A stretch of 64,000 nt of DNA from Octopus vulgaris. Its lineage: Eukaryota. The stretch spans positions 33,418,001 through 33,482,000 of the forward strand of contig OX597832.1 in assembly GCA_951406725.2 (NCBI GenBank), written 5' to 3'. Positions 10,046 through 59,880 of the stretch are shown here, piece by piece (positions within the stretch are counted from its first letter, which is position 1; the number at the start of each line of letters is the position of its first letter). Both the position numbers and the translations under genes were made by a program. The notes beneath the pieces are model-generated. The model ran no database searches. It was given only the letters and a program-made list of their open reading frames with translations, and had not been told where the DNA came from.

Positions 10046-11543
<1,498 letters not shown>

Positions 11544-12150: not shown

Positions 12151-12456
<306 letters not shown>

Positions 12457-31528: not shown

Positions 31529-31875
<347 letters not shown>

Positions 31876-47082: not shown

Positions 47083-47165
47083 GGTAGCGTGGCCAACCGG
47101 TCTAAGGCGCTGGTTTAAGGAAACCAGTCACTTCGGAGGCGTGGGTTCGAATCCCACCGCTGCCA
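47083..47165 (+). tRNA. tRNA-Leu(AAG)-derived gene, probably a variant or pseudogene (8-nt anticodon loop)
   Basis: GGTAGCGTGGCC..GGTCTAAGGCGCTGGTTTAAGG..GTGGGTTCGAATCCCACCGCTGCCA is nearly the metazoan Leu-AAG sequence; acceptor and T arms intact; AAG at 47117-47119. Confidence 0.85.
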
Positions 47166-56812: not shown

Positions 56813-57354
56813 AAGCACCTCAAAGGGCAATCACAAAAAAGATAGATGGCATGACAGGCCTCGACTATTGGGGTCGACTAGAAAAGCTAAAACTCTATTC
56901 TCTCCAACGTCGTCGTGAGCGCTACATCATCTACATGATGTGGAAAATATTCCATCAGCATTGCCCAAATGATGTTGGCATCACCTTTAAGGTACATCCA
57001 AGGCTTGGGCCCCGTGCCATCCGCCCAAAACAAAAATCGCACTCTCATCTCATAACAACAATACGGCACAATTATTTCACCTCAATTGGCCCCGCTCTCT
57101 TTAACATTACACCAAAACACATTAAAACAGAAACTGACCCTATAGGGTTCAAGAAGTCTTTGGACAGATTCCTTCAAGAAATCCCGGATAAACCCCCTAC
57201 ACCCGGATATGTCTCTGTAAACGATAACTCTCTACTTGAGTGGGCCATAGTGCCCAAATTCTGACTTGAAAGACTTCACCAGGTGGTGCTATTAAGTTAG
57301 ACATGGCCTGGGCCAATAATGGCCGAAACCTATCAAAGTATCAAAGTATCAAAG
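56813..57354 (+). mobile_element. CR1/L2-group LINE 3' end, copy 2
   Basis: ORF 56851-57264 is highly similar to 19206-19671 and uninterrupted to its stop; tail (TATCAAAG)3; flanked by (TA)n. Confidence 0.9.
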
Positions 57355-57406
57355 TATATATATATATACATATATGTATATATATATATATGTGTGTGTA
57401 TGTATG

Positions 57407-57973: not shown

Positions 57974-58240
57974 GGCGGTTAGCTTAGTGGGTAAGGTATT
58001 CGGCTCACGATTCTAAGGTCAGAGTTCGATTTTCAGTTGCACGTATCATCGTTGAGCAAGAAACTTTCTTTCGCCTTGATCTCGTCCACTGACATAAATG
58101 TATTTTGAAGGGTCAGCTTATATCATGTTGTGCGTCACTTTGGGTCCCCTTGAGAACTGCTGTGATTGGTGGAGTTCAATTATGCATCTATGAGCAACGC
58201 GCTCAGTTCATTGGTTGGTCAAGAATACTTCTTGTGACCA
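57974..58240 (+). mobile_element. SINE related to family C, degraded
   Basis: TAGCTTAGTGG A-box and GAGTTCGATT B-box; body resembles the reverse complement of 25786-26092. Confidence 0.6.
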
Positions 58241-58244
58241 AATG

Positions 58245-58458
58245 AGGTTTATTTTTCAACATAGTCGCCCTTGCGACCCACACATTTCTTCCATTTGTGT
58301 AGCTCTGTTTAGATACTGCTGGTGAGGGAACTTTCATCCTGTTGGTCAGAAAAGTCATCACCAGCAGATATGATACAGTTCTATATTTAAGAAATGAGGA
58401 ATTTTGTACATTATAGGGCTACTAACCTCAAGATTCCGAGTTCGATTCCAGGCAGTGA

Positions 58459-58489
<31 letters not shown>

Positions 58490-58493
58490 GATG

Positions 58494-58575
<82 letters not shown>

Positions 58576-58643
58576 TAATAATAATAATAATAAGAATAAT
58601 GCTAATAATAATAATAATGATAATAATAATGATGATAACAATG

Positions 58644-58715
<72 letters not shown>

Positions 58716-59880
58716 TCGAAAAGTACCTTAGGAATGAGAACCCAGGTTCGAAATTTCCCCAAGGCACCCGATGAAGGCTGGAAGGAGTATCAGCCGAAAC
58801 GTTGTGTTAACAACAAACAAGATGAGGACAAGAATCCGTCAAATGTAAATAATGTAGCAAATATGATGTCATCACCAATGCAATACTGGTCCCCATCCAA
58901 GTGTTCTTTTCATGTTGGAGAACTCAACAAAACAAGAGAAGAAGGACGAGTGCCCAACCAATTCAAAACCAGTCACTGAAATCAAGGAATTGTGTCCTGG
59001 AGCTTTGTACTGTTAAAACAATTCATCTTTCGTCATTTCTCCTGGGCGTGTATTCCAGACCGCCTTTCGTAACTGCCTCACCAACTTAGAAATACTGCAT
59101 TCATGGTGTGACCCTTTTGGATATATTCAATAAACACAATGTCGTTTGCATCCCCCTAAAAAGGCCGATTCATTTCACGCGAATGAAACGACCTTGGCCC
59201 TCTGTGGAGTAGGTGAAGAAGTGGTATCTCCACTGCATGGAATGTTTCTTTCTTTTCGGCTCAAAGTAATTAACGCAACACTCATATTGGGTCCAAGTAA
59301 ACCAACTGGATTTGCCTCAGACAATGTCAGATTTGCCCGTGATGTGATCATCCTGGGGCGCATTTGAACAGGGATCAGAAGACGTGTCGCCCACCGAGCA
59401 GAAACCTTCGTCAGGCCAAGTTCATGGTGGAGAATATTCACAACTCTTTCACAGGATACTTTAAAATCATTGGCTACATGTACAATCAATCGTTTGTAAT
59501 CGATCACTATGTTTTCCTTGGTGAGGCCATTTGCAAGAAGTAAGGACCGTGAGCTATCTTGAGTACTCTCCTTTCCCCTCATGAATTCAGCTGTCCCCTA
59601 TTGCATGGTTCATAGATCTTGAGCGTCATCCTCGGATGTAGTTAGCACGTCGGCATGAATGTCAACGGAGACTACACCTTTTATTTGCAGGTACTTGATA
59701 ACACTACGCTGCCAAAGTTTGACCATTTCCAAGACAAGTTTCTGCTAGTCATATTAAAGTCTTCTTTGAACAGTCAGCTGTCAGTTTACCTGGAATAAAG
59801 CAGGAAGAGTTGAACTTAATGCCGACAAAATTTCGCAGCTCTAGCACCACTCCTTCCAAGGTAGCCTCTGATTTAGTCAG
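58245..59880 (-). mobile_element. Mariner transposon, near full length, degraded, interrupted at 58375-58855
   Basis: ILHHELGLTKVSARWATRLL (cf. WVPRLL), IVFIEYIQKGHTMNA, and C-terminal KWKKCVGRKGDYVEK* left of the insertion. Confidence 0.88.
58375..58855 (+). mobile_element. Composite non-autonomous element: B-box, (AAT)n, hammerhead variant; 12-bp TSD
   Basis: AGCAGATATGAT 58363-58374 and AGCAAATATGAT 58856-58867; GAGTTCGATTCC 58438-58449; GGCAC CCGATGA A GGCTG..CAGCC GAAA C GTT GTGTT 58763-58808. Confidence 0.7.

Follow-up and report, generated by a model that had tools for sequence, protein, structure and literature searches.

An abundant octopus repeat with a tRNA-derived head and a Penelope-type 3′ end is probably a Pol III SINE inserted by PLE enzymes

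A 481-bp insert (58375-58855) in a 64,000-nucleotide stretch of Octopus vulgaris DNA, here called the window, belongs to an octopus repeat family of very high abundance, of which it is a 5′-truncated copy; the family is built of a tRNA head, a short (AAT)n array, a hammerhead motif and a Penelope-type 3′ end. Its parts are arranged in the order of a 39-bp inverted piece, a tRNA-like head with a B box, about 84 AAT units, the hammerhead and an AC-rich end (Table 1). The repeat is probably a non-autonomous Pol III SINE that depends on the enzymes of a Penelope-like element (PLE) for its copying and insertion. SINEs are described as passengers of LINEs, and a PLE partnership is rarely described for tRNA-derived repeats.

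Table 1. Coordinates of the insert's parts and of its flanks in the window
Feature	Position	Strand	Remarks
Host transposase C-terminal end, downstream piece, decayed mariner-like	58250-58374	−	Reads IISAGDDFSDQQDESS...WKKCVGRKGDYVEK-stop
Left target-site duplication (TSD)	58363-58374	+	11/12 identical to right copy
Inverted 3′ extension ('tail')	58375-58413	−	32 bp past the insert's right end plus 6-7 bp overlap
tRNA-derived head, 5′-truncated	58416-58462	+	B box 58439-58449, fits GTTCRANNC
Internal (AAT)n array, 84 triplets	58463-58715	+	P0004 has 10 codons here
Spacer	58716-58762	+	Includes an ATG (58734) and, at 58745-58755, the second B box that was rejected
Minimal type I hammerhead	58763-58808	+	Helix I 58763-67/58804-08; helix II 58776-81/58790-95
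AC-rich 3′ segment	58809-58855	+	Insert end 52 nt past predicted cut site
Right TSD	58856-58867	+	Codon frame same as left copy
Host remnant, upstream part	58856-59729	−	Many stops and frameshifts; three-frame translation; ends ...KEHLDGDQYCIGDDIIFA

The insert had been described from the sequence alone as a unit of about 480 bp that likely arrived at once between 12-bp duplications with one mismatch, and this description was borne out, the two direct repeats agreeing at 11 of their 12 positions as expected for the TSD of a single insertion unit. Such a match has a chance probability of ~3e-6 at fixed places and of ~1e-3 when 10 nt of freedom are allowed at both ends. The surrounding minus-strand sequence is a decayed mariner-like remnant, in which the flanks ...GDDIIFA and IISAGDDF...WKKCVGRKGDYVEK-stop stand in the same frame, and the frame ending ...KEHLDGDQYCIGDDIIFA resumes with IISA across the insert; taking out the insert and one 12-mer therefore leaves a continuous host frame. 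The claim of a split host frame thus stood, but the name mariner, suggested by motifs that resemble those of a mariner transposase, was not confirmed, since Pfam and PDB gave no significant match, chance matches at most; convincing terminal inverted repeats were not found for the host either. The host piece belongs to a repeated family with a peak of ~700-900x single-contig depth. Among the 32 contig pieces listed, seven from the host family ended their alignment at 58373-58375, as host copies that lack the insert would. The insertion is likely common to a related species, because a contig of organism C covered 58243-58397 with 2 differences, although its 23 letters on the insert side fall short of the threshold for a bridging contig. 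The copy studied here is decayed and lies in a dead transposon, and no host-organism function of the repeat is known.

Every motif picked out by the sequence-only reading was present where it had been placed (58438, 58745, 58768, 58798, 58407 and 58850). The B box, contained in GAGTTCGATTCC at 58438, fits the consensus GTTCRANNC and precedes an array of ~250 bp as had been reported, with AAT in 74 of its 84 triplets. A second B box had been proposed in GGTTCGAAATT at 58745, and it was rejected: the final C of the consensus is missing and GGTTCGA occurs 7 times within the window, so this site is not a promoter box. No T run on the sense strand of the insert exceeds 3, hence it carries no T4 stop, which speaks weakly for Pol III transcription. 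Contigs from four DNA runs with four organism labels extended the head beyond the insert. In all four, the loose ends before 58416 gave a single consensus, read for 30 letters only, that holds the A box TGGCGTAGTGG ~45 nt upstream of the B box as counted from this consensus. An A box had indeed been anticipated for the family; it is not present in this truncated copy, and in other copies the A and B boxes stand at tRNA spacing, which upholds the tRNA derivation of the head and places the truncation of the present copy within it. Just left of the mariner-like remnant (57975-58230, +), A-box-like and B-box-like motifs mark a further tRNA-like head, probably that of a different SINE.

The composite is not a one-off, because its head, AAT array and hammerhead side also stand together in another species, at an independent locus. 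When the antisense frame of the hammerhead side was used as query in a profile-free HMMER search, 2 of 1.84 billion proteins matched. P0004, an O. bimaculoides nucleoporin NUP42 model, has as its last 49 residues the element read antisense, matching the hammerhead side at 19/21 residues and the head side at 14/15, with 10 AAT codons between them. The contig alignments of the DNA runs covered the insert outside the AAT array and the 7 bases before it, so that the head-to-tail join was read at two loci, namely the present one and that of P0004, and the AAT array is expanded in the present copy (84 units versus ~10). The other match, the beetle repeat protein P0005 with 43% identity, was set aside as due to chance. 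Pieces of the element also appear in sense orientation at the N-termini of P0003, P0007 and P0009, isoform models of O. sinensis LOC115224785, of which the partial O. vulgaris counterpart (P0008) has a different start. Such pieces in predicted proteins, the antisense NUP42 C-terminus and the LOC115224785 N-termini alike, are either exonisation or an annotation artefact.

The head and the tail end of the family were both extremely abundant in contigs. The head block 58420-58455 and the tail-end block each reached ~3-5x10^4 times the depth of long single-copy contigs in all four runs, summed contig depth being a rough proxy and not a copy number; the head to tail-end ratios of 1.26, 0.74, 0.86 and 1.24 are soft evidence of unity, since the tail is optional in PLEs. 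The repeat was thus found to be high in abundance by this rough depth, dispersed among unrelated flanks, non-coding and flanked by a TSD, as tRNA SINEs are. Within the window, no further copy of the head, the tail or the host piece was detected, and exact-pattern scans of metagenome, prokaryote and viral collections gave no match.

That the element spreads (AAT)n had been suggested as well, and the suggestion holds at the two loci mentioned, with 84 and ~10 units; across the window it applies to only 1 of the 13 AAT arrays of at least 7 units. Of the others, three flank one other repeat and at least two another, and 11 of all 13 read AAT on the plus strand, so that the element is one AAT-array source among several. 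The window as a whole is microsatellite-rich animal DNA. Two other repeat families adjoin (AAT)n arrays in it (one at 10046, 53864 and, on the minus strand, 47791; the other at 12168 and 46922), and the array at 10046-11540 is ~1.5 kb long. An ARAGORN tRNA-like gene directly follows an (AAT)n array at 47083-47165 (+), repeating the theme of head and AAT in reversed order. A 146-codon open frame followed by a (TATCAAAG)3 tail lies at 56824-57357 (+); it has no Pfam match, and we take it to resemble the C-terminus of a LINE reverse transcriptase.

The 3′ half of the insert holds the predicted minimal hammerhead, which comprises the core CCGAUGA with C at U4 (CCGATGA at 58768) plus one extra A, helix I of 5 pairs (2 of them G-U), helix II of 6 pairs, GAAA, CGUU and the palindromic AACGUU (AACGTT at 58798), with the cut predicted after 58803. 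A minimal-hammerhead descriptor that allows one core mismatch yielded 2 matches in the window, at 58768 and 31711, against none in 100 shuffled windows and none in 5000 shuffles of the 142-nt tail. As given in passages of PMC4209133, the minimal hammerhead consensus of PLEs has an extra base between positions 9 and 10.1, a G10.1-C11.1 pair and a palindromic 15.2-16.2. Going by its sequence, the motif of the insert is this PLE minimal type I form with one core mismatch (U4C), and the hammerhead seen by the sequence-only reading was in this way substantiated. In Rfam, the hammerhead model gave no match and a low-complexity CrcZ match was the only one (16 bits versus a cut-off of 95); nor was the hammerhead preferred in free folding (z 0.87), which is to be expected of so minimal a motif. 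The motif had also been called probably inactive, and here the C at U4 stood, but probable inactivity is a stronger claim than the literature allows: parts of PMC3088659 describe U4C as reducing activity in vitro yet tolerated in a viroid. Single minimal hammerheads show no cleavage as monomers according to passages of PMC4209133. A protein search in the frame exposing U4 gave no match that could display this position in relatives, and U4 falls at a silent codon position in P0002-P0004. The other descriptor match belongs to a second minimal-hammerhead-like motif at 31706-31743 (+), with helix I TCTTT/AAAGA, core CTGTTGA, an extra A, helix II GAGC/GCTC and GAAACGTA; it sits in a ~205-bp stretch flanked by two (TA)n arrays, a stretch that is likely the pLTR remnant of another PLE family.

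The left end of the insert turned out to be an inverted copy of the family's own 3′ end. An inverted end had been hinted at from TACATTA at 58407 and TAATGTA at 58850, and the inversion was confirmed with a larger extent of 39 bp instead of 7 bp. The ATG at 58734 opens a stop-free frame that reaches the insert end, and with the stop-free frame over the 3′ part as query, two named Octopus records were matched. One of them, P0002 from O. bimaculoides, continues past the right end of the insert as HNSSSLKYRTI; translated from the reverse strand, 58374-58412 gives NVQNSSFLKYRTV, of which 10/13 residues equal this continuation. At the DNA level, the block 58375-58410 was extremely deep in contigs, and the loose ends behind 58414 entered the reverse complement of 58829-58856 in all four runs, most fully in X13. 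Taken together, P0002 and the loose ends identify the first 39 bp of the insert as the element's own last bases inverted. Before 58373-58376, the loose ends were long with unrelated flanks (agreement ~0.4), which places the family terminus there. One X1 contig has its joint at 58409-58416, and could stem from a further copy that is laid out alike or from an allele.

PLE insertions carry a 30-40 bp tail at one end together with an inverted 5′ partner, as stated in parts of PMC8557442, and the 39-bp inverted piece has both the size of such a tail and the inverted partner. Two PLE-type features, the minimal hammerhead and the inverted tail, are present in the insert. The family 3′ end is a non-repeat terminus with no poly(A) or tandem tail, and so lacks a LINE-type tail. 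It lies 84-86 nt past the predicted cut site, to be compared with 85-92 nt for the reverse transcription start of PAc as obtained by subtraction from PMC11167929; by analogy, the AC-rich segment of the insert would resemble the AC-rich start region of PAc (PMC11167929).

Among known systems, the endonuclease-bearing PLEs (Penelope/Poseidon, Neptune and Nematis) share with the insert the extra base 9/10.1 and the palindromic helix III, as described in parts of PMC4209133, and PLE insertion units, as far as passages of PMC8557442 go, likewise have an inverted partner on the 5′ side and bear the tail at just one of their ends. Unlike a PLE, the insert has no RT or GIY-YIG, and a tRNA Pol III head and (AAT)n stand upstream of its hammerhead. 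The nearest precedent for a Pol III promoter combined with a hammerhead is the schistosome SM-alpha. In passages of the review PMC6765202, Schistosoma SM-alpha and Sj-alpha resemble the insert in being short non-coding repeats with a Pol III promoter followed by a hammerhead, and differ from it in being tandem repeats whose active hammerhead frees units from multimers; these passages name no PLE partner or tail for them, whereas the insert, a monomer of dispersed occurrence, combines a hammerhead of the minimal form with an internal microsatellite and the inverted tail of a PLE. The non-LTR retrozymes of animals are likewise non-coding, with a type I hammerhead, and are proposed to be PLE-moved and pLTR-derived (parts of PMC7229834 and bioRxiv 10.64898/2026.07.22.740005). 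They are defined by tandem units and circular RNAs, whereas the insert is one unit (passages of PMC7229834, PMC7761336 and bioRxiv 10.64898/2026.07.22.740005); the excerpted preprint asks for at least 2 tandem units, each with a complete hammerhead (bioRxiv 10.64898/2026.07.22.740005). With a single hammerhead and no tandem units in the insert, the label of retrozyme that had been offered as an option was dropped. The available text of the same preprint holds 0 mentions of tRNA, promoter or polymerase III (bioRxiv 10.64898/2026.07.22.740005), and that of PMC7229834 has no mention of SINE or Pol III. Small-RNA Pol III promoters captured by a non-autonomous element of a non-LINE retrotransposon class are also known from TRIMp3 (Cassandra, Helenus and Ajax), which differ from the insert in using LTR-retrotransposon machinery with PBS, PPT and LTRs (passages of PMC10886601).

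The tRNA-derived SINEs, including octopus OK, OR1 and OR2, share with the repeat a tRNA head, A/B boxes, a high copy number and a TSD; what sets the repeat apart is a PLE-type 3′ end in place of a LINE tail. The family may nonetheless be one of these three octopus families, which were reportedly described in a 1994 paper. OR2 is given as a CORE SINE in excerpts of PMC4758252. In the repeat annotation of O. vulgaris, the recently active SINE families left unclassified number 893 and the Penelope families 30, and hammerheads are nowhere named in its supplement (PMC13282606); 235 hammerheads are reported in a passage of the giant squid paper (PMC6962438). At the level of titles and abstract openings, no tRNA SINE moved by a PLE, nor this octopus family, was found in the literature, and the family may well have been catalogued already under another label, for instance in Repbase or Dfam.

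For a SINE that uses PLE enzymes, a route of insertion can be outlined by analogy with PAc, a Poseidon element. In vitro, PAc cleaves and extends both target strands with a preference for ATT, and its reverse transcription starts at two internal sites that bound the tail; PAc inserts equally well with a dead hammerhead, and its hammerhead cuts only with protein (PMC11167929). Applied to the octopus repeat, we infer that a full copy would be transcribed by Pol III from the A and B boxes, and that the pLTR-derived 3′ part of the RNA is where an RT/GIY-YIG protein of a PLE would bind; this protein would make one nick in each target strand, the two being 12 bp apart, and use each of them for priming. 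The top-strand-primed cDNA would begin at the distal end of the RNA and copy only 39 nt, giving the inverted tail; the bottom-strand cDNA would begin ~32 nt further in, pass via the hammerhead and the AAT array into the head, and halt near 58416. Joining of the two cDNAs would produce the inverted tail, the truncated body and the TSD. The hammerhead is likely a slow, dimer- or protein-dependent pLTR relic, or a binding structure, because efficient cutting would separate the promoter from the priming end. The AAT array was likely lengthened after insertion.

The main competing explanation, to which we give a minor share of belief, regards the unit as the 3′ end, or pseudo-LTR, of an autonomous PLE into which a tRNA/SINE head with its AAT tail was once taken up, so that the abundant short copies would be ordinary 5′-truncated PLE insertions and the A/B boxes a promoter or passengers. 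PLE copies are indeed strongly 5′-truncated, and most of their hammerheads are dispersed single remnants (passages of PMC8557442 and PMC4209133); the present insert is 5′-truncated as well, and the sequence upstream of the head was read for just 30 letters. The stop-free frame from 58734, which continues in frame into the tail (P0002, 51 aa), recalls PAc, in which the ORF start overlaps the hammerhead (PMC11167929), yet an open frame running from there into the tail fits either a SINE or a pseudo-LTR. Against a pseudo-LTR, the head lies ~250 nt from the end in short-array copies and is nevertheless as deep as the extreme end, and both boxes, A and B, have been kept intact at the spacing of a tRNA. 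A longer-protein search with the 58734 frame, weak as it was, gave a host gene model only and no PLE protein. Two weak searches found no autonomous PLE with this 3′ end, and no RT or GIY-YIG frame was found in the 481-bp copy, which is 5′-truncated, so that longer members of the family may still have one.

It is considerably less probable that the head and (AAT)n form an independent tRNA SINE, onto whose AAT tail PLE end fragments insert or template-switch, leaving a recurrent or one-off scar. PAc nicks ATT motifs (PMC11167929), PLEs favour microsatellites (parts of PMC8557442) and (AAT)n is also found at the ends of other repeat families in the window, all of which would suit such a scar; it sits poorly with an inverted tail joined to the truncated head on the left and a PLE end lying on the right, all within one TSD, with the identical join in the same reading frame at the independent P0004 locus, and with the similar depth of the head and tail-end blocks. 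Least probable of all, we think, is an ordinary LINE-mobilised SINE that acquired a 5′ inversion by twin priming and bears a hammerhead-like motif by chance. LINE-driven inserts can show 12-bp TSDs and twin-priming inversions, but the hammerhead descriptor was satisfied in 0/5000 tail shuffles, the family terminus is non-repeat against unrelated flanks and without poly(A) or a tandem tail, and the inverted piece has the size of a PLE tail (passages of PMC8557442).

The preferred reading, a Pol III SINE using PLE enzymes, can be extended to a fuller history, for and against which we see the balance as even: that the repeat, one of the major ones of octopus genomes with tens of thousands of copies, is a genuine Pol III SINE that has a PLE, not a LINE, for a partner, that it originated when a tRNA retrocopy received a PLE end in its AAT tail, and that its own core of ~10 units is the seed of AAT microsatellites. 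If true, the SINE-PLE partnership would have a clear example in a tRNA-headed SINE that bears both the end and the insertion marks of a PLE; this would complete a series with SINE/LINE and TRIMp3/LTR, and studies of PLE transposition would gain a minimal RNA substrate of natural origin. From tens of thousands of dated copies, and with genome data alone, one could then chart where PLEs nick, where the two priming sites lie and whether the hammerhead is needed, which are open points of PLE biology (PMC11167929). For the octopus genome, the repeat would be a source of some AAT microsatellites and would account for spurious pieces in gene models.
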